A stretch of 64,000 bases of DNA, from positions 512,001 through 576,000 of the forward strand of contig CAVTQK010000021.1 of the NCBI GenBank assembly GCA_963736855.1, written 5' to 3'. Source of the DNA: an uncultured delta proteobacterium. Lineage in GTDB: Bacteria > Desulfobacterota > Desulfobacteria > Desulfobacterales > UBA2156. A model generated the notes under the pieces. It had not been told where the DNA came from. It saw nothing but the letters and a program-made list of their open reading frames with translations, and did no database searches. The first letter of the stretch is position 1. Every line of letters starts with the position of its first letter. A program made the translations under genes and the position numbers. Shown here in pieces: positions 43,436 to 64,000 of this stretch.

Positions 43436-45184
43436 GTGACGATGGATAAGGCAAGATATCATGATGATTTTTTTGAAAAATGTCCGACGGGCATCAGGGG
43501 TTTCGACGAGATCACAAAGGGTGGGGTCCCGAGGGGCAGGCCCACCCTGATCTGCGGCGGTCCGGGTGCCGGCAAGACACTTTTGGCCATGGAGTTTATC
43601 ATGCGGGGCGCTATGGATTACGGAGAACCCGGGGTCTTCATGACCTTCGAGGAAACACCGGAGGATCTCGCGAAGAACTTCATGTCCCTTGGTTTTGATC
43701 TCCATAAGATGATTTCGCGTGGTCTCATCGCAACGGATCACGTCTACATCGCGCGAAGTGAGATTGAGGAGACGGGTGAGTACGATCTGGAGGGATTGTT
43801 TATCCGCTTGGGAAATGCCATTGATTCCATCGGAGCAAAGCGGGTTGTCTTAGATACCATAGAAGCCCTTTTCTCCGAGCTTCCGAATGCCACTATTCTT
43901 CGGGCAGAGCTTCGTCGGCTTTTTCTCTGGCTGAAAGATCGCGGTGTGACCGCTGTCGTTACTGGGGAAACCGGCGACAAGTCTCTGACACGCTACGGGC
44001 TCGAAGAATATGTCGCCGATTGCGTGATCTTCCTCGACTTCCGCATCGTGAAGCATATTGCGACCCGCCGCCTGCGTATTATCAAGTACCGCGGCTCATC
44101 TCACAGCTCCGACGAGTATCCCTTCCTGATAGGTGAGAGAGGCCTCTCTATCCTGCCGATCACTTCCCTCGGGCTCGACTACCCCGTTTCCACGGAGCGG
44201 ATCTCCACAGGAGTTCCCAAGTTGGATGCCATGCTTGGTGGGAAGGGATTTTTCCGGGGCAGCACCATCCTCGTCTCCGGTACGGCGGGCACAGGAAAAA
44301 CAAGTTTATCGACTACCTTTGCCGACGCCGCCTGCCGGCGAGGGGAGCGCTGCCTGTATTTTGCCTTCGAAGAATCGCCCAGACAGATCATCCGGAACAT
44401 GGGCTCCATCGGCATGGATCTCAAGCGGTGGGTGAAGAAGGGGGTTCTCAAGTTCCATTCAGCCCGGCCTTCGCTTTACGGTCTTGAGACGCATCTTGTC
44501 ACCTTCCACAAGGCGATCGAGGAGTTCACGCCCCAGGTTTTCATTGTAGACCCGATCAGCAACCTGATCAACGTGGGAACCACATCAGAGGTCAAATCCA
44601 TATTAACGCGCCTTATCGATTATTTGAAGATGCAAAAGATCTCCACGTTTCTTACGGACCTCACCCATTTCGGAAGCAGCCTTGAACGCACAAGTGAAGA
44701 GATATCTTCTCTGATCGATACGTGGCTTCTCCTTCGGGATATCGAACTCAATGGGGAACGAAACCGGGGCCTCTACATTTTGAAATCCCGCGGCATGCCC
44801 CACTCCAACCAGATTCAAGAGTTCCTGCTCTCGAACCAGGGCATTGACCTTATTGATATCTATACCGGTTCCGGCGAGGTATTAACCGGCAGTGCCCGGG
44901 CAGCCCAGGAAGGCAAGGAAAAGGCCTTTGAGCTGGCACGCCAACATGAGGTGGATCGCAAGTTCCGCGAGCAGGAGCGCAAGAGGAAGGCCCTGGAAAC
45001 AAAGATCGCAGCCCTCCGCGCCGAGTTTGATGCGGAATCTGAAGAACTGCATTTGATGGGGGAAGAAGAGCGGAAAAGGCAATCTGCCCTGGCGGATAAC
45101 CGTTTGGAGATGGCGCATCTTCGCAAGGGGGAACCTTCAGCAGCCCGACGAAGCGCTCGAAAAAGAAGAGGGAAAGGAGATTAG
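43436..45184 (+). CDS. kaiC: Circadian clock protein KaiC (double-domain, SS phosphosite type, C-terminal coiled coil)
   Basis: Two RecA-like domains ([24 protein letters not shown]), [22 protein letters not shown], coiled-coil tail. Confidence 0.95.
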
Positions 45185-45185
45185 G

Positions 45186-45518
45186 ATGAAAGCTGTCTCG
45201 CCAGGGAAGGGGAAGAAAGCAAAGACCGATTCGATAGAAGAAATCTGGAATCTCCGGTTATATGTAGCCGGTCAGACCCAGAAATCGATTACGGCCTTTG
45301 CTAATCTAAAGAAGATCTGCGAAGAGCACCTTGCGGGGAAATACCGCATTGAAGTGATAGACCTTATAGAGAAACCCCAGCTTGCCAAAGGGGATCAGAT
45401 TATTGCCATACCGACACTGGTCAGAAAACTTCCTGAACCGCTTAAAAAGATTATCGGAGATCTGGCCAACACAGAACGCGTCCTGGTGGGACTCGACATT
45501 CGTTCCAGCTCCGGATGA
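45186..45518 (+). CDS. kaiB: KaiB, copy 1
   Basis: [33 protein letters not shown]. Confidence 0.93.
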
Positions 45519-45520
45519 TA

Positions 45521-45747
45521 AATCAGAAGTCAGGAGTCAGAATTAAGGAGTTAGGATGAGGACGGCAGACAAACTCCGCTTTTACAACGTCTCACAAGGT
45601 TCCATTGAAGAATCTCGATACTATTTGATTCTCACCAAGGATCTTGAGTACGGCGATGTTTCCGAGTTAGGCCAGTTGCTTGAAGAGGTCAGCAAGCTGT
45701 TGGAGGCCTATTCGCAGGTTGTTCTGAATTCTGACTCCTGAATTCTG
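45521..45747 (+). pseudogene. C-terminal half of a four-helix-bundle (23S rRNA intervening-sequence-like) protein flanked by inverted heptamer repeats
   Basis: DKLRFYNVSQGSIEESRYYLIL; upstream TCAGAAG-TCAGGAG-TCAGAAT, downstream ATTCTGA-CTCCTGA-ATTCTG. Confidence 0.7.
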
Positions 45748-45779
45748 TCTACCGAGTAGTAACTTTTGGAGTAACAGAG

Positions 45780-46124
45780 ATGGCGCTGAAGAGAGGGAAA
45801 ACGCGTACTGAGGAACTCGAAAAGGCCACAGCGAGGCGCGACAGGGAAAAGTATGTTCTTCGCCTGTATGTTACAGGGTTGACCCCAAGATCAACCCTGG
45901 CAATCGCCAATGTCCGGAAAATCTGTAAAAAATACCTGGCGGGCCGTTACGAACTCGAGGTAATAGACCTCTACCAACAGCCCAAGCTGGCCAAGGGAGA
46001 GCAGATTATTGCCGCCCCAACGCTCATCAAGACACTCCCTCTGCCACTCCGGAGGCTCATCGGCGACATGTCGGATACGGAAAAGTTTCTTATAGGCCTT
46101 GATCTGAAACCCAAGAAATCCTGA
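45780..46124 (+). CDS. kaiB: KaiB, copy 2
   Basis: YVLRLYVTGLT, EVIDL, EQIIAAPTL, RLIGDM. Confidence 0.92.
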   Translation: MALKRGKTRTEELEKATARRDREKYVLRLYVTGLTPRSTLAIANVRKICKKYLAGRYELEVIDLYQQPKLAKGEQIIAAPTLIKTLPLPLRRLIGDMSDTEKFLIGLDLKPKKS

Positions 46125-46134
46125 GTACGAATCT

Positions 46135-48111
46135 ATGAACAAATCGTATAGAACACGCCGACAACTTTTGGATGAGTTGCAGGAACTCACATCGCGGATG
46201 ATGGAAGCTGAGGAAACTCTACGAGCTATCCAAAGCGGTGAGGTGGACGGCCTCATTGTCTCAACGACGGAAGGAGATCGCGTCTTTACGCTATCGGGTG
46301 CCGATCATCCTTACAGGGTCATGGTCGAAACAATGAACGAAGGAGCCGTCACCCTTGCCTCCGACGGCACGATCCTTTACAGTAACCAACGTTTTGCCGA
46401 TATCGTCAAAGTGTCTCTGGAAAAAGCAATAGGAACTTCAATCTACCAATATATTTCATCAACAGACCTTCAATTATTTGAGGAATTGGTTAAGCGGGGT
46501 TTAAATGGGAACCGTGAGGGGGAACTGGCCTTACAGGCTGGAGGTGAAAACTCTGTGCCTGTCTTACTTTCCGTAAGTCCCCTTCAACTCACGGACATGC
46601 CCGATGCGGTGTGTGCCATAATAGTGGACATGACCGAGCGCAAGAAGATGGAGGAGGCGCTAAAGAATTCTGAAACTCGCTACCGCCGTCTCTTTGAAGC
46701 AGCTCGAGATGGAATATTAATTCTCGATGCCGAGACAGGACAAATAGTGGATGTTAACCCATTCGTGTTAGAAATATTGGGTTATTCACATGAGGAGCTC
46801 TTAGGGAAGAAACTCTGGGAAATTGGCACCTTTAGAGATATTGAAGAATCGAAAGCCACCTCTGCGGAATTAAAGAGCAAAGGATATGTTCGCTACGATG
46901 ATTTACCGCTGGTGACGAAAGACGGGCGTAAAATTGCCGTGGAATTTGTCAGTAATGTCTATCTGGTCAACCATTACAAAGTGATTCAGTGTAACATCCG
47001 CGACACCACTGAACGGAAACTTACAGGAGAGGCTTTAAAAAAATCTCACAACGAACTGGAACGACAAGCTGTCGAACTTCGGACGGCTCTTTCTGAAATC
47101 AAAACATTGAAAGACCGACTCGAGGCCGAGAATATTTACTTCCGTCACGAACGCAAACTGAAATATCAATTTGAGAATATTATCGGGCAAAGTGATGGTC
47201 TTAAGTATGTTCTCTATCGAGCGGAACAAGTTGCTCCTATGGACACAACAGTCCTCATCCTTGGGGAAACCGGCACGGGAAAAGAGTTGATTGCTGCCGC
47301 CATTCATGGCATGAGTCCGCGTACGAAACGGCCCATGATTATGGTCAACTGTGCTGCCTTGCCTGGCAATTTAATAGAGAGCGAATTGTTCGGCCGGGAG
47401 AAGGGGGCATTTACCGGGGCCGATACCCGGCAGATAGGCCGATTCGAGGTCGCCAATGGTTCCACCCTTTGCTTAGACGAGATCGGGGAGCTGCCGCTGG
47501 AGTTGCAGGCAAAGCTGCTCCGGGTGATTCAGCATGGCGAGTTTGAACGTCTGGGCTCGTCCCATACCATCAAAGTCGATGTGCGAATCGTGGCAACGAC
47601 CAATCGAGACCTTGATGAAGAGGTCCGCAATGGCCGGTTTCGGCAGGACCTTTACTATCGGCTCAACGTCTTTCCCATCACTGTACCACCACTACGGCAG
47701 CGGAAAGAAGACATCCCGTTGTTGGTCAAGACCTTCATAGAGCGATACTCCAGGAAATTGGGGAAACAGATCACATCAATTCAGAAGGAGACGATGAAGG
47801 CTCTGCAGGATTATCCGTGGCCCGGAAACGTCCGGGAGCTGGAAAGCATCATTGAACGGGGCGTGATCTTGTGCCCGGGGCCGGTTTTGCACCTGGCAGA
47901 TAAACTGGAGATTTCATCCCTTCCACTCTCATCCGCCGTGAGAACCCTGGAAGAGATGGAGCGAAACCAGATCCTTAAGATCCTTTCGGAAACCCGATGG
48001 CGCATCGAGGGAAAGAACGGGGCCGCAGCGATTTTGGGCCTCCACCCGAGTACCTTGAGAGCGAGGATGCATAAGCTCGGGATACTTCGGCCGGAAACCA
48101 AGGGGTCGTAA
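46135..48111 (+). CDS. PAS-PAS sigma54-dependent enhancer-binding protein (AAA+, Fis-type HTH)
   Basis: N-terminal coil EAEETLRAIQSGEVD, two PAS domains, GETGTGKE, GAFTGA, LDEIGE, RQDLYYRL, WPGNVREL, C-terminal HTH; no receiver domain. Confidence 0.93.
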   Translation: MNKSYRTRRQLLDELQELTSRMMEAEETLRAIQSGEVDGLIVSTTEGDRVFTLSGADHPYRVMVETMNEGAVTLASDGTILYSNQRFADIVKVSLEKAIGTSIYQYISSTDLQLFEELVKRGLNGNREGELALQAGGENSVPVLLSVSPLQLTDMPDAVCAIIVDMTERKKMEEALKNSETRYRRLFEAARDGILILDAETGQIVDVNPFVLEILGYSHEELLGKKLWEIGTFRDIEESKATSAELKSKGYVRYDDLPLVTKDGRKIAVEFVSNVYLVNHYKVIQCNIRDTTERKLTGEALKKSHNELERQAVELRTALSEIKTLKDRLEAENIYFRHERKLKYQFENIIGQSDGLKYVLYRAEQVAPMDTTVLILGETGTGKELIAAAIHGMSPRTKRPMIMVNCAALPGNLIESELFGREKGAFTGADTRQIGRFEVANGSTLCLDEIGELPLELQAKLLRVIQHGEFERLGSSHTIKVDVRIVATTNRDLDEEVRNGRFRQDLYYRLNVFPITVPPLRQRKEDIPLLVKTFIERYSRKLGKQITSIQKETMKALQDYPWPGNVRELESIIERGVILCPGPVLHLADKLEISSLPLSSAVRTLEEMERNQILKILSETRWRIEGKNGAAAILGLHPSTLRARMHKLGILRPETKGS

Positions 48112-48139
48112 TAGAAAGTTAGATTCTCCGCCGCGGTTC

Positions 48140-48287
48140 CCTCCATATCTGGAGGTTCCACCAAATATTGAGGTCAATCAAATCATTTCACCTTTATCTA
48201 CGCTTCTCCCTTATTCATCTAACCCAGCGTTATGAAAAGATAATCCCAAACTCTTGATTTTTTCACAATGTTGGCAGGTCACTTGCA
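48140..48287 (+). promoter_or_regulatory. Sigma54 promoter module 1: tandem UAS palindromes, IHF site, -24/-12 box
   Basis: CCTCCATATCTGGAGG-tt-CCACCAAATATTGAGG (48140-48173); IHF consensus AATCAAGAGTTTG on minus strand (48247-48259); TGGCAGGTCACTTGCA (48272-48287). Confidence 0.8.
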
Positions 48288-48299
48288 ATTACGATCTGC

Positions 48300-48626
48300 A
48301 TGATTCTGGCCATCATACGAATGAAGGTTCTTGCTGAGAAGCGCAAGGAGCTTTCCCAGACGATCGCATTACTGATCGGCTCCCTAAGGACAGAGAAGGG
48401 ATGTCGGCGCTGCGACTTTTACCGGAGTTTGGAGGATAAAAACGAACTCTGTATTCTTGAAGAATGGGATACCCGGGAGAACCTAGATAGCCACCTGAGG
48501 TCGGAGCGTTTTAAGGTCCTTCGGGGGGCGATGAATCTTCTCCAAGAGCCCTACGAAATGATGTTCCACACCGTAGCATCGGGAAAAAAGAAAACGGAAG
48601 CGCGGTCCCAGCCAGCAGTTGAATGA
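48300..48626 (+). CDS. Antibiotic biosynthesis monooxygenase (ABM) family protein
   Basis: R.EKGC, LEEWDTRENLDSHLRSERF; duplicated at 60879. Confidence 0.8.
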   Translation: MILAIIRMKVLAEKRKELSQTIALLIGSLRTEKGCRRCDFYRSLEDKNELCILEEWDTRENLDSHLRSERFKVLRGAMNLLQEPYEMMFHTVASGKKKTEARSQPAVE

Positions 48627-48685
48627 CCGGGATGACTGGGGCCAACGTACCATCTCTCAAACCAAATTCCGAAAGGAGGAATACC

Positions 48686-48865
48686 ATGAAATCAAGCAGA
48701 AGGGATGAGACAGAAGGCAAGTTGCACCAAGTGAAAGGTAAGATCAAGGAGATCGCCGGGAGAGTAAGCATGAATCCCGGCTTGGAAGCCGAAGGCAAAG
48801 AGGAAAACAGAACGGGCAAAGTTCAAGAAAAGATCGGCCAGGTCAAGAAGCTCGTTGGGAAGTAA
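48686..48865 (+). CDS. CsbD-family stress protein
   Basis: D.TEGK..QVKGKIKE.AG.....LEAEG.....GKVQ..IG; strong RBS AAGGAGG. Confidence 0.88.
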   Translation: MKSSRRDETEGKLHQVKGKIKEIAGRVSMNPGLEAEGKEENRTGKVQEKIGQVKKLVGK

Positions 48866-52647: not shown

Positions 52648-53057
52648 AAAATTCTGGGGTCACACGCCCTGGAGGCTGAAGATAAACATCGGGAAGGAAG
52701 CGACCGAATGACATCACCACCTGTCCGTCGGCTGATATTGCGATTGAGTGCATCGGTGATCTGTTCAACAACGACTTATCTCTGCAGTCAATCTAGACAA
52801 TACATAGCCGAATACCCATTGAGTAAGGTCACGATGCACCTTAAACAACCCGATTTATTATCTTGAATATGGGGGAGTATCTCACCTCTCCGCTCACCGG
52901 GATGTTTTGGATTCCCCGGCCCCCCTCGTTTCGTAGAATGAAGTTGTGCAGAGGCAGGAGCTCAGAGAGATGTTGTCCAAATCTCCATCCAAACTCTTGA
53001 CTCTTCGGCGGGAAACCAAGGGGTCGTAATAGAAAGTTAGATTCTCCGCCGCGGTTC

Positions 53058-53205
53058 CCTCCACATCTGGAGGTTCCACCAAATATTGAGGCCAAACCAA
53101 TCGAATCATCCTTCTCCACTTTCCACTCATGTTACTCTAATCCATTGTTATTAAAGAGTGATTCCAGCTTTATGGTTTTCACGGTCTTCTGGCAAGCCAT
53201 TTGCA
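53058..53205 (+). promoter_or_regulatory. Sigma54 promoter module 2
   Basis: CCTCCACATCTGGAGG-tt-CCACCAAATATTGAGG (53058-53091); TGGCAAGCCATTTGCA (53190-53205). Confidence 0.78.
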
Positions 53206-53297
53206 GTGATTACTTGCATGATCCTTGATACCAAGGGCCCAGAAGGTAAATTTATCTGGAAAGACGAATTGAATCGTCAGAAAGGAGGCCAGTTGCC

Positions 53298-53432
53298 ATG
53301 CAAATCAGTCTATCGCCACAGCCGATAGTTTCCTTAATCGCGGGAATCTTGATTCTCCTTGTCCCGAGGCTGCTGAATTACATCGTTGCCATCTATCTTA
53401 TTATATTTGGCATCCTCGGATTGATTCGCTGA
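53298..53432 (+). CDS. DUF3096-like small membrane protein (absent from ORF track)
   Basis: MQISLSPQPIVSLIAGILILLVPRLLNYIVAIYLIIFGILGLIR; RBS AAGGAGG. Confidence 0.85.
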   Translation: MQISLSPQPIVSLIAGILILLVPRLLNYIVAIYLIIFGILGLIR

Positions 53433-53503: not shown

Positions 53504-53818
53504 ATGAAAAAGAGAAATGTCTTTATCCACTGTTTAATGGTTCTTATGCTGATCGGCACCCTTGCAGCCTGTGCATCGACATCCACCCGGGAAAGTACAG
53601 GGGAATACGTCGACGATTCGGTCATCACGACCAAGGTAAAATCTCTGCTTGCCGGAGATGATTTTCTCAAGTCATTCCAGATTGGTGTCGAAACTTACAA
53701 GGGCGTCGTTCAATTGAGCGGTTTTGTGAACACTAAAGAAGCCTCCAATAAAGCGGCTCAAATCGCCGGCGGCGTCAAAGGAGTCAAATCCGTGAAAAAT
53801 GATCTGGTCGTGAAATAG
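53504..53818 (+). CDS. BON-domain (OsmY-like) lipoprotein
   Basis: Lipobox LAAC; DDSVITTKVK, GVVQLSGFV, GVKSVKNDL. Confidence 0.9.
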   Translation: MKKRNVFIHCLMVLMLIGTLAACASTSTRESTGEYVDDSVITTKVKSLLAGDDFLKSFQIGVETYKGVVQLSGFVNTKEASNKAAQIAGGVKGVKSVKNDLVVK

Positions 53819-54562: not shown

Positions 54563-54743
54563 AATTTATCAGAGAATCGGCGGATAGGGCTGAAGGTATG
54601 TGCAGGTGGTTTACAGGCAGTAATGAGATCACAGGTTGATGAAATGGGGCCGATCTTGTTTCGATACCGCAATGGTCTTTTGCGAACGGAGACGGATCGG
54701 CCCCATCATGCTTATCAAAAGGAAACATGGGATGATAGAGACC

Positions 54744-55157
54744 ATGAAAGAGACGATAAAACCTCTATCCTCAAACGCAGGGCAAAGACTATCCGGACGT
54801 ATCCTTGTGGCTGAGGATAATAAGGCTATTAAGAAAATAGTTTCCGGGTTCCTTGGTTTCATGGGATTTGAAGTGGCTCTTGTCGAAAACGGCCTTGAAG
54901 CGCTCTCTCTGTTTCTCAAGACCTCATTCGATTTGGTTCTGACCGACCTCGACATGCCCGTCATGGACGGTTGGAGCTTGACACGCCGCATTAAAGAAAG
55001 GTCGCCTGACACTCCGGTGGTATTGATGACGGGTGAGGATAGGAAGACCGTTTTGAGGAAGGCGGAAAGATGGCCTGTTGACTCAGTCCTATTCAAGCCG
55101 TTTGAACTGGAAGATCTTAAAAGGACAGTCCAAGAAGCGCTGGAGTTGCGGAAATGA
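54744..55157 (+). CDS. Single-domain response regulator
   Basis: ILVAEDN, LTDLDMPVMDG, LMTG, FKPF. Confidence 0.85.
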   Translation: MKETIKPLSSNAGQRLSGRILVAEDNKAIKKIVSGFLGFMGFEVALVENGLEALSLFLKTSFDLVLTDLDMPVMDGWSLTRRIKERSPDTPVVLMTGEDRKTVLRKAERWPVDSVLFKPFELEDLKRTVQEALELRK

Positions 55158-56617: not shown

Positions 56618-56643
56618 GATCCGGCTCTCCTTCAAAAGGTACC

Positions 56644-56792
56644 CCTCAATATATTGTGGCTCCACCAAATATTGAGGCCAGACAAATCATCTTTCCCCTT
56701 CTTTATGCCTTTATTTATTCATATAACGCCTTGTTATTAAAGTTAAGTATCCAAATCTTGGATTTTTCCCGGTTGTTGGCATGCTACTTGCG
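56644..56792 (+). promoter_or_regulatory. Sigma54 promoter module 3 (most diverged)
   Basis: CCTCAATATATTGTGG-ct-CCACCAAATATTGAGG (56644-56677); near-IHF site ~56752-56764; TGGCATGCTACTTGCG (56777-56792). Confidence 0.78.
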
Positions 56793-56931
56793 GTTACTCT
56801 CTATGTGATCCTGATCACACCGTACCTGCGTTAAAAAGGAGAACGGAAGCGCGGTCCCAGCCGGCAGTTTGACTACGATGGTTGGGGCTGACGATCCATT
56901 AGTCAAACTAAATTACGAAAGGGAGACCGTC

Positions 56932-57111
56932 ATGAAATCAGGAACAAGGGACGAAGCGGAAGGCAAGTTTCACCAAATGAAGGGAAAGGTCAAGGAGATC
57001 GCCGGGAAACTGAGCGATGATTCAAACTTGGAAGCTGAAGGTACCAATGAAAAGAGAGCCGGGAAAGTTCAAGAAAAGACCGGCCAGATCAAAAAGGTAC
57101 TGGGGAAGTAG
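56932..57111 (+). CDS. CsbD-family stress protein
   Basis: MKSGTRDEAEGKFHQMKGKVKEIAGK...; paralog of 48686. Confidence 0.88.
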   Translation: MKSGTRDEAEGKFHQMKGKVKEIAGKLSDDSNLEAEGTNEKRAGKVQEKTGQIKKVLGK

Positions 57112-57261: not shown

Positions 57262-58044
57262 ATGAAAGCAATATATAATGTATCTTTAATAGCAGCAGCG
57301 ATCACTCTCTTTGTGATCAGCGTGCCTGTGCAGGCGTCAAAAATGGATGAGCAAATCGTATCGTCAGCCCAAAAGTCGTATGTGTTCAAGACCTACCTCA
57401 AGGACGATGATATTAAAATCCAGTCCAAGGATAGCGTTGTCACCTTGACCGGGACTGTTTCTGAAGAAGGCCACAAACAATTGGCCCGGGAGACTGTTGC
57501 AAGCCTGCCCGGAGTTAAAAGCGTGGACAACAAGTTGGAATTAAAAGGTGAAGTCCCTGCTGAGCACTCGGATGCGTGGCTCATGACGAAGGTGAAAACC
57601 AGCCTCCTGTTCCATCGCAGCGTGAGCGCCATCGCAACCGAGATCGATGTCAAAGACGGCGTCGTGACTCTGCGTGGTGATACTGCCAATCAGGCACAAA
57701 AAGACCTGACAACCGAGTACGCCAAGGATGTTGATGGGGTCAAAGAGGTCAAGAATGAGATGACAGTTGCAAAGACCCCTAAAAAACCGGAAGAAAAAAC
57801 GATGGGCAAAAAGATGAGTGACATTGTTGAAAAGATTGATGACGCATCCATCACCGCCCTGGTCAAGAGTACGTTGCTGTATCATCGCTCGACCAGCGGC
57901 CTCAACACCAAGGTCGAGACGAACAATGGAGTGGTCACATTGAGTGGCAAGGCCAAAAACAAGGCTGAAAAAGATCTGGCCACCAAATTTGTAAGTGATG
58001 TTCACGGCGTAAAGAAGGTGGTCAATAAAATGACCGCCCAGTGA
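57262..58044 (+). CDS. Secreted protein with three BON domains (OsmY-like)
   Basis: Signal peptide; three repeats of VVTL.G....GVK.V.N. Confidence 0.9.
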   Translation: MKAIYNVSLIAAAITLFVISVPVQASKMDEQIVSSAQKSYVFKTYLKDDDIKIQSKDSVVTLTGTVSEEGHKQLARETVASLPGVKSVDNKLELKGEVPAEHSDAWLMTKVKTSLLFHRSVSAIATEIDVKDGVVTLRGDTANQAQKDLTTEYAKDVDGVKEVKNEMTVAKTPKKPEEKTMGKKMSDIVEKIDDASITALVKSTLLYHRSTSGLNTKVETNNGVVTLSGKAKNKAEKDLATKFVSDVHGVKKVVNKMTAQ

Positions 58045-60356: not shown

Positions 60357-60691
60357 ATGACGAGAGAGTCACCCCTGAAACCAGCTAACCCACGCATCCT
60401 CACGATCAATGGCGGCTCGTCGAGCATCAAGTTCGCGCGCCTCACTCTTAGGAGGCAGAGTAGCGGGGAGGAGTTGGCTTTCGGAGAAATCTCAACAGGA
60501 GCCCAAAACGACTTGCTGCTGGCTACAGACATTGTCAAATCCATGGTCACGGAATATGGCATGAACGATCGTCCGGGGCTTGTGACCTATGCACACGCTC
60601 GTCAGCCTCTGTTCCCGCCGGGAAGATTTGCTCCCAGCAAAATCTCCATCCAAACCATTGACTCTTCGGCCGGAAACCAAGGGGTCGTAAT
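60357..60691 (+). pseudogene. Chimeric remnant: acetate kinase N-terminus, FtsH protease-domain fragment and activator tail
   Basis: [14 protein letters not shown] (acetokinase motif), then [30 protein letters not shown] (FtsH M41). Confidence 0.7.
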
Positions 60692-60718
60692 AGAAAGTTA
60701 GATTCTCCGCCGCGGTTC

Positions 60719-60866
60719 CCTCCATATCTGGAGGTTCCACCAAATATTGAGGTCAATCAAATCATTTCACCCTTATCTACGCTTCTCCCTTATTCATCTA
60801 ACCCAGCGTTATGAAAAGATAATCCCAAACTCTTGATTTTTTCACAATGTTGGCAGGTCACTTGCA
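60719..60866 (+). promoter_or_regulatory. Sigma54 promoter module 4
   Basis: Tandem palindromes 60719-60752; IHF site; TGGCAGGTCACTTGCA 60851-60866. Confidence 0.8.
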
Positions 60867-60878
60867 ATTACGATTTGC

Positions 60879-61205
60879 ATGATTCTGACCATCATACGAA
60901 TGAAGGTTCTTGCTGAGAAGCGCAAGGAGCTTTCCCAGACGATCGCATTACTGATCGGCTCCCTAAGGACAGAGAAGGGATGTCGGCGCTGCGACTTTTA
61001 CCGGAGTTTGGAGGATAAAAATGAACTCTGTATTCTTGAAGAATGGGATACCCGGGAGAACCTAGATAGCCACCTGAAGTCGGAGCGTTTTAGGGTCCTT
61101 CGGGGGGCGATGAATCTTCTCCAAGAGCCCTACGAAATGATGTTCCACACCGTAGCATCGGGAAAAAAGAAAACGGAAGCGCGGTCCCAGCCAGCAGTTG
61201 AATAA
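60879..61205 (+). CDS. ABM-family protein, duplicate
   Basis: 3 aa differences from 48300-48626. Confidence 0.8.
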   Translation: MILTIIRMKVLAEKRKELSQTIALLIGSLRTEKGCRRCDFYRSLEDKNELCILEEWDTRENLDSHLKSERFRVLRGAMNLLQEPYEMMFHTVASGKKKTEARSQPAVE

Positions 61206-61264
61206 CCGGGATGACTGGGGCCAACGTACCATCTCTCAAACCAAATTCCGAAAGGAGGAATACC

Positions 61265-61444
61265 ATGAAATCAAGCAGAAGGGATGAGACAGAAGGCAAG
61301 TTGCACCAAGTGAAAGGTAAGATCAAGGAGATCGCCGGAAAAGTAAGCATGAATCCCGGCTTGGAAGCCGAAGGCAAAGAGGAAAACAGAACGGGCAAAG
61401 TTCAAGAAAAAATCGGCCAGTTCAAGAAACTCGTGGGGAAGTAA
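61265..61444 (+). CDS. CsbD-family stress protein, duplicate
   Basis: 2 aa differences from 48686-48865. Confidence 0.88.
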   Translation: MKSSRRDETEGKLHQVKGKIKEIAGKVSMNPGLEAEGKEENRTGKVQEKIGQFKKLVGK

Positions 61445-62719: not shown

Positions 62720-64000
62720 ATGTCAAGAAAAAGAGAAGACGAACCACAGGAAAATCTAATGGATAGACTTCGCGCCATGTTCGGTTTTCAAAACCCGGAT
62801 AAAAAGAATGCTCTGCCACCGAAAGCTCACTTCAGCATCTGGTATTTTCTGATTGCCGTTTTTGCATTTTCTTTCATTCAACAATACTTTTTTTCCGGCA
62901 AAGTGGAGACGATTCCTTATAGCCAGTTCAAACAATACGTAGCTCAAGGCAACGTCGCAAAATTGAGTATCGGCCCTGAGGTTATCAGCGGAACGCTAAA
63001 AGGAGCTTTGGGTCAGAACTTCACCACGATTCGGGTGAATGATCCCGGGCTTGTGAAAGAGTTGGATGAAAACAAAATAAACTATTCTGGATACTTTGAA
63101 AGCCAATTGGTGGGCACGATTCTATCCTGGGTTGTTCCAATCGGCATCTTTTTTCTGATCTGGCGCTACGTCATGAACAAAATGGGTCCGGGGATGGGGG
63201 TCATGTCATTCAGCAAGAGCAAAGCCAAGATCTTTGCCGAAACCGAGACGAAAGTCACTTTTGCTGATGTCGCCGGCATCGATGAGGCCAAAGAAGAGCT
63301 TAAGGAAGTGGTTGAGTTTTTGCAAAACCCGGAGAAATTTCAAAAATTGGGAGGGAGGATTCCCAAAGGGGTGCTTCTGGTAGGCCTGCCCGGGACCGGC
63401 AAAACTCTTCTGGCAAAAGCCGTGGCCGGAGAGGCCAAAGTTACTTTCTTCAGCATCAGCGGGTCTGAATTTGTGGAAATGTTCGTCGGCGTAGGTGCAG
63501 CTCGTGTCCGCGATCTTTTCTCTCAGGCTGCTGCTCAAGCACCCTGTATCATCTTCATCGATGAATTGGATGCGTTAGGTAAAGCTCGCGGTGTGAATGT
63601 CTTTGGCGGGCATGATGAACGCGAGCAGACTCTGAACCAGCTCCTGGTGGAAATGGATGGGTTCGAAACGAATAAAGGGGTCATCATCATGGCTGCTACC
63701 AACCGACCGGAAATATTAGACCCCGCATTGTTGCGCCCGGGGCGGTTTGATCGTCAGGTCTTAATCGATCGGCCGGATATAAACGGGAGGGAAGCAATCC
63801 TGAAAATTCATTGCAAGCATGTCGTGTTGGATTCTGATGTCGATCTGCGCAAGATCGCCGGTCTTACTCCGGGTTTTGTGGGGGCTGATTTAGCCAACCT
63901 CGTCAATGAGTCCGCCCTTTTGGCGGCCCGGAAAAACAGAGAAACGGTAGGGTCGGCGGAGTTCGATGAAGCGATCGACCGTGTGGTGGGAGGGTTGGAG
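62720..64000 (+). CDS. ftsH: ATP-dependent zinc metalloprotease FtsH (partial, runs off window end)
   Basis: Open frame from ATG 62720 (RBS AAGGAG): two TM helices, [37 protein letters not shown]. Confidence 0.93.

Follow-up and report, generated by a model that had tools for sequence, protein, structure and literature searches.

The kai locus and its genes

We analyzed a 64,000-nucleotide (nt) stretch of DNA (the window; contig C21, positions 512001 to 576000) from a 3.9-Mb, 100% complete genome, in which kaiC, two kaiB genes, and a gene for a sigma-54 enhancer-binding protein (the activator) form one run, and we propose that an N-terminal module of the activator may couple the Kai timer to transcription. 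The run (43436 to 48111) consists of five co-oriented open reading frames (ORFs): kaiC, kaiB1, a 61-amino-acid (aa) ORF, kaiB2, and the activator gene. ORF coordinates confirm the co-oriented kaiC-kaiB-kaiB-activator order reported in a preliminary description of the locus, with 1 nt between kaiC and kaiB1 and 10 nt between kaiB2 and the activator gene; what that description overlooked is the gap of 261 nt between kaiB1 and kaiB2 (45519 to 45779, versus ∼26 to 30 nt in most relatives), which holds a gene remnant. The features of the run are as follows.

43436-45184, + strand: kaiC, 582 aa; two ATPase domains, SS pair, ∼90-residue C-terminal coiled-coil tail
45186-45518, + strand: kaiB1, 110 aa; PF07689 94.3 bits (cut-off 27); KaiB1-type clade
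45556-45741, + strand: remnant ORF, 61 aa, 5′-truncated; four-helix-bundle/23S rRNA-IVP family
45780-46124, + strand: kaiB2, 114 aa; PF07689 85 bits (cut-off 27); KaiB2-type clade
46135-48111, + strand: activator, sigma-54 enhancer-binding protein, 658 aa, no receiver domain
46135-46335, + strand: pre-PAS segment of the activator, aa 1-67; helix 8-34, AIQSGEVDG, hairpin 39-52, PYR
46327-46659, + strand: first PAS domain of the activator, aa 65-175 (PAS_4 65-170); accompanies the pre-PAS segment in close relatives

KaiC matches the NCBIfam model NF006799 at 727.7 bits (cut-off 408) and the cyanobacterial model TIGR02655 at 348 bits, below the cut-off of 546. It carries Walker A motifs at residues 41 (GGPGAGKT) and 282 (GTAGTGKT), catalytic FEE at residues 71 and 311, and the phosphosite pair EISSLID at residue 422. 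Its best solved relative is 8dba_A (624.9 bits), to which residues 15 to 554 align, tail included, with SS on SS. Motifs and alignment therefore agree with the earlier characterization of this KaiC as having both ATPase domains intact, an SS pair, and a long coiled-coil tail. 8DBA is the KaiC dodecamer of Rhodobacter sphaeroides, with phosphosites S413 and S414 and a coiled-coil tail that replaces KaiA (PMC10076222).

Both KaiB proteins score 96 to 97 bits on the NCBIfam equivalog NF006798, below its cut-off of 110. They had been described as divergent, which their 53% identity and their placement in separate KaiB1-type and KaiB2-type clades substantiate (quick tree search; Shimodaira-Hasegawa-like approximate likelihood ratio test [SH-aLRT] 95 each). 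The best solved relative of KaiB2 is 8fwj_M, a KaiB; the AlphaFold2 model of KaiB2 has a mean predicted local distance difference test score (pLDDT) of 58.6, too low for a statement on fold preference.

This is the only kai locus in the genome. The reported lack of kaiA and sasA in the window extends to the whole genome: no KaiA was found in it, and its only two KaiB-domain matches are the kaiB genes themselves, so that no KaiB-like domain, a possible mark of a SasA-type kinase, occurs elsewhere. The genome encodes RpoN (DNA-binding domain, 205.5 bits) and carries the sulfite-reductase genes dsrA and dsrB, and the nearest related loci come from metagenome-assembled genomes (MAGs) of Thermodesulfobacteriota; dsrAB and these relatives are indirect indications of the anaerobic lifestyle named in the preliminary description.

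The activator and its N-terminal module

Pfam scan and translation agree with the preliminary description of a PAS-PAS-AAA+(GAFTGA)-helix-turn-helix activator that has no receiver domain. The scan places PAS_4 at residues 65 to 170, PAS at 182 to 293, Sigma54_activat at 349 to 515, an AAA lid at 521 to 589, and HTH_8 at 604 to 647, with scores of 237.8 bits for PF00158, 86 bits for PF25601, and 25.6 bits for PF02954, and GAFTGA is readable in the translation. The same scan found no KaiB-like or thioredoxin-like domain in the activator, which thus differs from the SasA-type architecture, and no curated family that covers the segment before the first PAS domain. AlphaFold2 modeled the module from a 30-row alignment as a helix (residues 8 to 34), a hairpin (39 to 44 and 47 to 52), a vague stretch (53 to 66), and a confident PAS domain (69 to 165). 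Nothing in the PDB (Foldseek and sequence search) or the ESM Atlas matched the pre-PAS segment, generic PAS relatives being the only returns; the PDB sequence search with the module gave one phytochrome PAS (E = 0.0015).

A search with residues 1 to 80 retrieved 678 proteins, the nearest 120 of which are 83 to 94% identical over those residues; 12 of these 120 are HisKA_3/HATPase kinases in place of the sigma-54 domain. Activators and kinases remain ∼85% identical up to residue ∼175 (alignment A1) and then continue into different second PAS domains and outputs. Judging from this alignment, the conserved unit in close relatives is residues 1 to ∼175, comprising the coil, the GEVD hairpin, and the first PAS domain. 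Alignment A1 also contains a conserved helical linker before the AAA+ domain (ELRTALSEIKT.KD.LEAENIYFR).

Distribution of the module beside kaiB

In a collection of one genome per species, a search with residues 1 to 175 found at least 137 relatives among 600 candidate stretches, and we used the best 80 loci, whose modules are 36 to 88% identical to the query. In 79 of these 80, a same-strand kaiB gene immediately precedes the module gene (tblastn with KaiB1 and KaiB2 of the window), and kaiC lies upstream in 71; of the 9 loci without kaiC, 7 have less than 1.5 kb of upstream sequence and 2 (L037 and L062) have 10 kb. The loci come from Thermodesulfobacteriota, MAGs labeled "Deltaproteobacteria," Planctomycetota, Acidobacteriota, Nitrospirales, Methylococcaceae, Oligoflexus, and two Methanomassiliicoccaceae archaea. 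Most loci carry both kaiB types, with kaiB2 adjoining the module gene; 16 single-kaiB loci, all labeled Acidobacteriota, form one clade, and their gene is KaiB1-type.

Because a similarity search of this kind retrieves orthologous operons, we built a profile of the pre-PAS segment alone (A2; 58 positions, window residues 10 to 67, 31 diverse rows), in which A, I, G-E-V-D, L, Y-R, and E are invariant (A31, I32, G35 to D38, Y60, and R61 of the activator among them). The segment in the window reaches 109.6 bits on this profile and lies 59 nt downstream from the KaiB domain of kaiB2. Among 401 genomes of the window's phylum, 48 of which have KaiB domains, A2 gave 27 matches at 73 to 110 bits, the next best scoring 44.9. 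In 26 of these 27 cases, the same strand carries a KaiB domain whose end is 56 to 583 nt upstream of the match; the remaining match starts at base 2 of its contig, and the two kaiB genes of that genome lie at the end of another contig. In a second sample, 301 genomes of the phylum of locus L065, 9 of 10 A2 matches at or above 61 bits lie in a kaiB run (read from tables), and about a quarter of the kaiB-bearing genomes have the coil-GEVD segment. Four genomes from other phyla, searched whole, have the segment at the kai locus and nowhere else, and residues 1 to 75 occur once in the genome of the window (tblastn). The enrichment of the N-terminal segment beside kaiBC that the preliminary description had predicted was thus found when the preset adjacency test was run, at both levels (79/80 loci and 26/27 profile matches).

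Comparison with more distant relatives narrows the shared element. Seven weak A2 matches (24 to 34 bits, covering profile positions 6 to 32 only) stand directly downstream of kaiB. The five of these loci that we inspected have a deeply divergent kaiC-kaiB pair (KaiC 39 to 40% and KaiB 30 to 35% identical to those of the window), and the kinases after such pairs start with YEELEARLAQVEETLEAIRRGEVD, a coil plus EAIRRGEVD, and then continue differently. By this comparison, what is shared with the deeply divergent Kai system is only the first ∼35 residues, coil plus AIxxGEVD. In two genomes without kaiB (G299 and G286), relatives of the module retain the PAS domain and have lost GEVD. Some library members (P0122, P0123, P0126, P0127, and P0128) hold two or three tandem coil-GxVD-hairpin units, with or without PAS between them, and since tandem copies exist, the ∼35-residue unit behaves as a repeatable element.

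A representative library of 1.84 billion proteins contained 5731 clusters matching A2 at E ≤ 1e-3, 4474 of them at E ≤ 1e-10. The best A2 match starts by residue 23 in 139 of the 150 best representatives, and no KaiB fusion was found among these 150. An apparent natural KaiB2-module fusion ORF in L025 was rejected, as it is a run of N in the scaffold.

Output domains attached to the module

Pfam assigns the 32 module ORFs scanned downstream of kaiB to HisKA/HisKA_3 kinases, hybrid kinases with a receiver (L056, L058, L065, and L074), a PAS-GGDEF-EAL protein (second module gene of L065), stand-alone modules of 176 to 263 aa (L050, L055, and L076), a 1234-aa multi-PAS protein (L062), and activators (L042 and L045). 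The best 150 representatives of the 5731 library clusters were classified by phmmer with eight domain queries, as follows.

Kinase: 54
Kinase plus receiver: 15
GGDEF-EAL: 2
Sigma-54 activator: 1
No match, under 300 aa: 46
No match, 300 aa or more: 32

With 1 activator against 54 + 15 kinases in this set, the activator fusion is a rare variant of a mostly kinase-linked family. The earlier statement that the same N-terminal coil also starts kinases beside other non-cyanobacterial kaiBC genes proved correct.

Three loci (L017, L065, and L066) have two module-bearing genes per kai run; in L065 the PAS-GGDEF-EAL protein comes after a hybrid kinase, and L066 has a duplicated kaiB1-kaiB2-module unit. 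The two Methanomassiliicoccaceae MAGs (L050 and L053) have kaiC-kaiB1-kaiB2-module runs with modules 45 to 47% identical to that of the window, one a stand-alone 219-aa protein and the other an 809-aa kinase. A Planctomycetia MAG (L037/G404) with kaiB2, an activator-type module, and no match to the KaiC of the window in its genome was not used as evidence; its activator gene is interrupted by ∼1.3 kb, and the locus therefore looks decayed.

Predicted promoters and target genes

Downstream of the activator gene, we found repeated cassettes, each with an upstream activator sequence (UAS) and a sigma-54 −24/−12 element, in front of small stress-type protein genes.

48139-48173, + strand: UAS 1, two adjacent inverted repeats, CCCTCCATATCTGGAGG and CCACCAAATATTGAGG
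48272-48287, + strand: sigma-54 −24/−12 element, TGGCAGGTCACTTGCA, 13 nt before the ABM start codon
48300-48626, + strand: ABM gene (PF03992, 61 bits), first gene of the predicted target operon
48623-48865, + strand: CsbD-like gene (PF05532, 52.6 bits), second gene of the predicted target operon
53057-53091 (UAS) and 53190-53205 (−24/−12), + strand: cassette 2, before small ORFs and a BON-domain gene (53504-53818)
56643-56677 (UAS) and 56777-56792 (−24/−12), + strand: cassette 3, before CsbD (56869-57111) and a 3×BON gene (57262-58044)
60718-60866, + strand: cassette 4, a 99% duplicate of cassette 1, before ABM (60879-61205) and CsbD (61211-61444)

A fifth cassette lies 0.8 kb past the end of the window, after ftsH. 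The exact 16-mer CCACCAAATATTGAGG occurs five times in the genome, always with TGGYA-N6-YTGC 114 to 115 nt downstream, and a sixth copy on contig C19 has one mismatch and its promoter element at 112 nt. Behind the six cassettes are two ABM-CsbD pairs (99% duplicates), two sets of small ORFs plus BON, and two triple-BON genes; of the last, the one in the window is CsbD plus triple-BON, and on C19 the triple-BON ORF is confirmed and CsbD is a guess only.

The arrangement is conserved among relatives. Thirteen related loci have an ABM homologue after the activator gene, and 18 of the 21 regions examined have TGGYA-N6-YTGC located 12 to 14 nt ahead of the ABM start (misses L018, L023, and L042; L029 has it at 31 nt). 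In 12 aligned regions (A5), the upstream block TCCCTCAATATnTGAGGTTCCACCAAATATTGAGG, again two adjacent inverted repeats, and the GG/GC elements are invariant and the spacer between them is variable. The UAS-promoter composite is present at 27 of 36 activator-type loci versus 0 of 44 others, and restricting the comparison to loci with over 3.5 kb of sequence past the module start gives 23/28 versus 0/29. On this evidence the six cassettes are likely the targets, or regulon, of the activator. No UAS lies upstream of kaiC in any of the 80 loci, so there is no sign of autoregulation.

Several segments of the region are duplicated: the cassette segments 48085 to 48384, 53003 to 53302, and 60664 to 60963 (99% and 64%) and the CsbD segments 48624 to 48864, 56870 to 57110, and 61203 to 61443 (97% and 75%). 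Copies 2 and 4 of the cassette open with the final ∼25 nt of the activator gene, which indicates that they were copied from its 3′ flank.

Proposed mechanism and alternatives

We put at roughly 60% the probability that the module docks KaiB, most probably KaiC-bound, and that the timer state thereby controls the activator and the six UAS/sigma-54 stress-gene promoters. In such a pathway, by analogy with Rhodobacter, KaiC would be a constitutive autokinase that needs no KaiA because of its coiled-coil tail; at falling ATP/ADP it would bind fold-switched KaiB, and KaiB would promote its dephosphorylation. The coil and GEVD hairpin of the module would bind KaiB, free or on KaiC, and this binding would alter dimer geometry, a change relayed via the second PAS domain and the helical linker to the AAA+ domain. 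The activator would bind the two inverted repeats, and its AAA+ domain would open the sigma-54 promoters of the stress-type genes (ABM, CsbD, and BON). The Kai-bound state could act with either sign, turning the activator on or off. The near-restriction of the module to the neighborhood of kaiB genes makes it likely that the timer switches the nearby small stress-protein genes directly and not through a kinase, and the Kai-docking interpretation offered in the preliminary description is partly supported. A broader version of the proposal, in which the ∼35-residue coil-AIxxGEVD-hairpin is a portable KaiB-docking tag for any output (kinase, c-di-GMP enzyme, or sigma-54 activator) and a light-independent KaiBC hourglass sensitive to cellular energy state here directly times a sigma-54 general-stress regulon by way of one polypeptide, is tentative, and we would lean somewhat against it as a whole.

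Several observations weigh against docking and regulation as proposed. In L063, a 2268-bp contig, the 1177 nt that precede the module gene contain no kaiB, a 61.5-bit A2 match in G466 lies on a contig other than that of its genome's kaiB, and one relative (L100/G206) retains AIQSGEAD 24.6 kb from the nearest kaiB. The module is absent at ∼17 kaiB loci among the 401 genomes and from ∼30 of 40 kaiB-bearing genomes of the second sample, so it is not a general Kai output. The adjacency counts are not independent events, because adjacency is that of a conserved operon among relatives, and part of the spread of the module is probably transfer of the whole cassette. The contrast with 0 of 44 loci is confounded with phylogeny, L033 and L034 being the only same-clade kinase-type loci with enough downstream DNA. 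A loose sigma-54 pattern has 26 matches in the window versus 26.2 expected; with that count uninformative, the promoter case rests on conservation and the UAS. With the −12 element 12 to 14 nt before the ABM start in nearly all loci, and no Shine-Dalgarno sequence between the two, the predicted mRNA would be leaderless or nearly so, which is unusual. The modeled hairpin reaches only ∼65 pLDDT. Finally, residue 83 of the activator is Ser (46381 to 46383), in place of the Cys (..LYCN..) of 13/13 other A1 rows and all diverse-set rows; the substitution may be specific to the strain, and the PAS residue is of possible redox or ligand relevance.

The distribution of the genes also bears on the docking partner. 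Among the 80 loci, the module gene is never beside kaiC without kaiB, and in one genome (L062/G705) a kaiB2-type gene plus module lies ∼450 kb from the kaiC-kaiB-kaiB run. KaiC stops within ∼30 residues past its core in 19 of 59 scored loci, these 19 being mostly Acidobacteriota MAGs by title, and the module is present in them. KaiB is favored as the direct partner because the module tracks kaiB and never kaiC alone, because the module is also present at loci whose KaiC has no long tail, and because, by analogy, the cyanobacterial protein KidA provides a precedent (see below). A module that docks on KaiC instead, whether on the CI ring in the manner of SasA or through its N-terminal helix paired with the KaiC coiled coil, would fit the ∼90-residue coiled-coil tail of KaiC and the 27-residue helix with which the modeled module opens, and cyanobacterial SasA does bind KaiC directly (PMC11665890). 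We consider this very unlikely, however: the loci that have no long KaiC tail and still carry the module after kaiB argue against a coil-to-tail contact, the module has no KaiB-like or thioredoxin-like domain, and it is seen with kaiB but no adjacent kaiC (L062), never the reverse.

Two further explanations concern the direction and the existence of the coupling. The module might bind KaiB mainly as a timer input or modulator, in the manner of KidA, with a PAS signal tuning KaiB and the outputs following that PAS signal; stand-alone modules of 176 to 263 aa with no output downstream of kaiB (L050, L055, and L076) and the proteins with two or three tandem motif copies would suit such a role. 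Yet most members carry a signaling output right after the module, activator-type loci have a matching regulon next door, and an element that only tunes the timer needs no varied outputs, so we regard this as improbable as the main function, although both roles can coexist. There might also be no physical coupling at all, the activator being merely co-transcribed with kaiBC while its PAS domains sense their own ligand and the coil and hairpin serve as a dimerization or N-cap element. Dimerization is a common role of PAS N-terminal helices, the fold search yielded generic PAS relatives only, and segment relatives scoring 35 to 45 bits exist in large kinases away from kaiB. Against this stand the persistence of the 35-residue tag by kaiB despite changes of PAS domain, output domain, and Kai lineage, the loss of its invariant residues in the two inspected genomes without kaiB, and its uniqueness in each of the five whole genomes searched; we give the idea of an uncoupled activator little credence and retain docking on KaiB as the preferred reading.

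Relation to known systems

Operons of kaiC, kaiB, and a PAS/histidine kinase gene have been described in Rhodopseudomonas palustris and R. sphaeroides (Ma et al. 2016, PMC4794148). By the published description, they resemble the locus in the window in having a KaiA-less kaiC, kaiB, and then a PAS signaling gene in one predicted operon; they differ in that the output in the window is a one-component sigma-54 activator and not a kinase, and in its two kaiB paralogues. The R. sphaeroides KaiBC hourglass (Pitsawong et al. 2023, PMC10076222; 8DBA and 8FWJ) likewise has an SS pair, a coiled-coil tail, and no KaiA, whereas ATP/ADP behavior for the window is expected by homology only and its host, with dsrAB, is presumably non-phototrophic. 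That hourglass study leaves output untreated, the term "histidine kinase" occurring 0 times in the accessible text of PMC10076222.

In KidA of Synechococcus elongatus, N-terminal PAS domains bind fold-switched KaiB and stabilize that form (Kim et al. 2022, PMC9478674), and outside cyanobacteria PAS genes are often co-operonic with kaiBC (PMC9478674). As published, KidA is like the activator in having an N-terminal PAS region fused to signaling outputs. Unlike the module, KidA is encoded away from kaiB, requires three PAS domains, and affects period, and the available description of KidA includes no coil-GEVD tag. In the cyanobacterial SasA/CikA-RpaA pathway, too, Kai state governs transcription by way of a protein docked on KaiC or KaiB, but the route is two-component phosphotransfer to a sigma-70-type response regulator, with SasA docking via a KaiB-like domain; in the window, sensor and activator are one polypeptide, the promoters are of the sigma-54 type, and no KaiB-like domain occurs outside kaiB1 and kaiB2. 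With activators of the FhlA/NifA/NorR type, the window protein shares an N-terminal sensor, AAA+ with GAFTGA, a Fis-type helix-turn-helix, and a UAS ∼115 nt before −24/−12 (its C-terminal 370 residues score 395 bits on the FhlA model, below the cut-off of 830); it differs in its sensor, the Kai-associated module, and in its predicted targets, small stress-type protein genes.

Already known, then, are kaiC-kaiB-PAS/kinase operons and the binding of KidA PAS domains to KaiB; unreported in the literature that we found is a Kai/sigma-54 link. Our search for a published connection of Kai proteins with sigma-54, enhancer-binding proteins, or RpoN found none (supplements excepted, and partly judged by titles and abstracts), and PMC12288465, in the text available, mentions Kai and enhancer-binding topics separately. 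The locus bears on the question of how non-cyanobacterial KaiBC systems convey their state to the cell. It amounts to a short specified chain of timer, candidate tag, activator, sites and promoters, and genes that could be rebuilt in vitro or in Escherichia coli, and if the portable-tag proposal were true it would be a complete, experimentally tractable Kai output pathway outside cyanobacteria. The large unnamed family (4474 clusters at E ≤ 1e-10) could serve to trace Kai outputs in further phyla and among archaea. In anaerobes, the arrangement suggests a timer for stress or energy-state timing and not for light anticipation.

Other features of the locus

The 61-aa ORF between the kaiB genes is the C-terminal half of a four-helix-bundle gene (TIGR02436, 31.4 bits, cut-off 24; PF05635, 31 bits, below the cut-off of 33.8) and is probably not part of the mechanism. 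A whole 121-aa four-helix-bundle gene occupies the same place in L030 (2501 to 2866), and the gene is also present in L044 (9259 to 9432). One contig from a public run (X19) joins position 45520 to 45764, which implies a relative without the inserted remnant.

Scans for sigma-70 promoters and terminators between 42900 and 49400 gave results at chance level. Assemblies of RNA libraries from two runs contain contigs on kaiC, kaiB1, and parts of the activator gene, which are not evidence of transcription; being mostly 90 to 95% alike to the window, the public-run contigs are from relatives. Of the DNA upstream of kaiC, only the last ∼70 to 80 nt are common with four relatives, and the native kaiC promoter may therefore have been displaced. 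A 122-aa fragment of an ISL3-family transposase (PF01610; 42688 to 43056) lies 380 nt upstream of kaiC.

Amid the stress-gene cassettes is a stand-alone receiver-domain protein of 173 aa (54636 to 55157), with no partner kinase evident in the window. A 114-aa ORF (60357 to 60701) that abuts the duplicated cassette contains part of an FtsH peptidase M41 domain; the start of a full ftsH gene is at position 62720 of the window.

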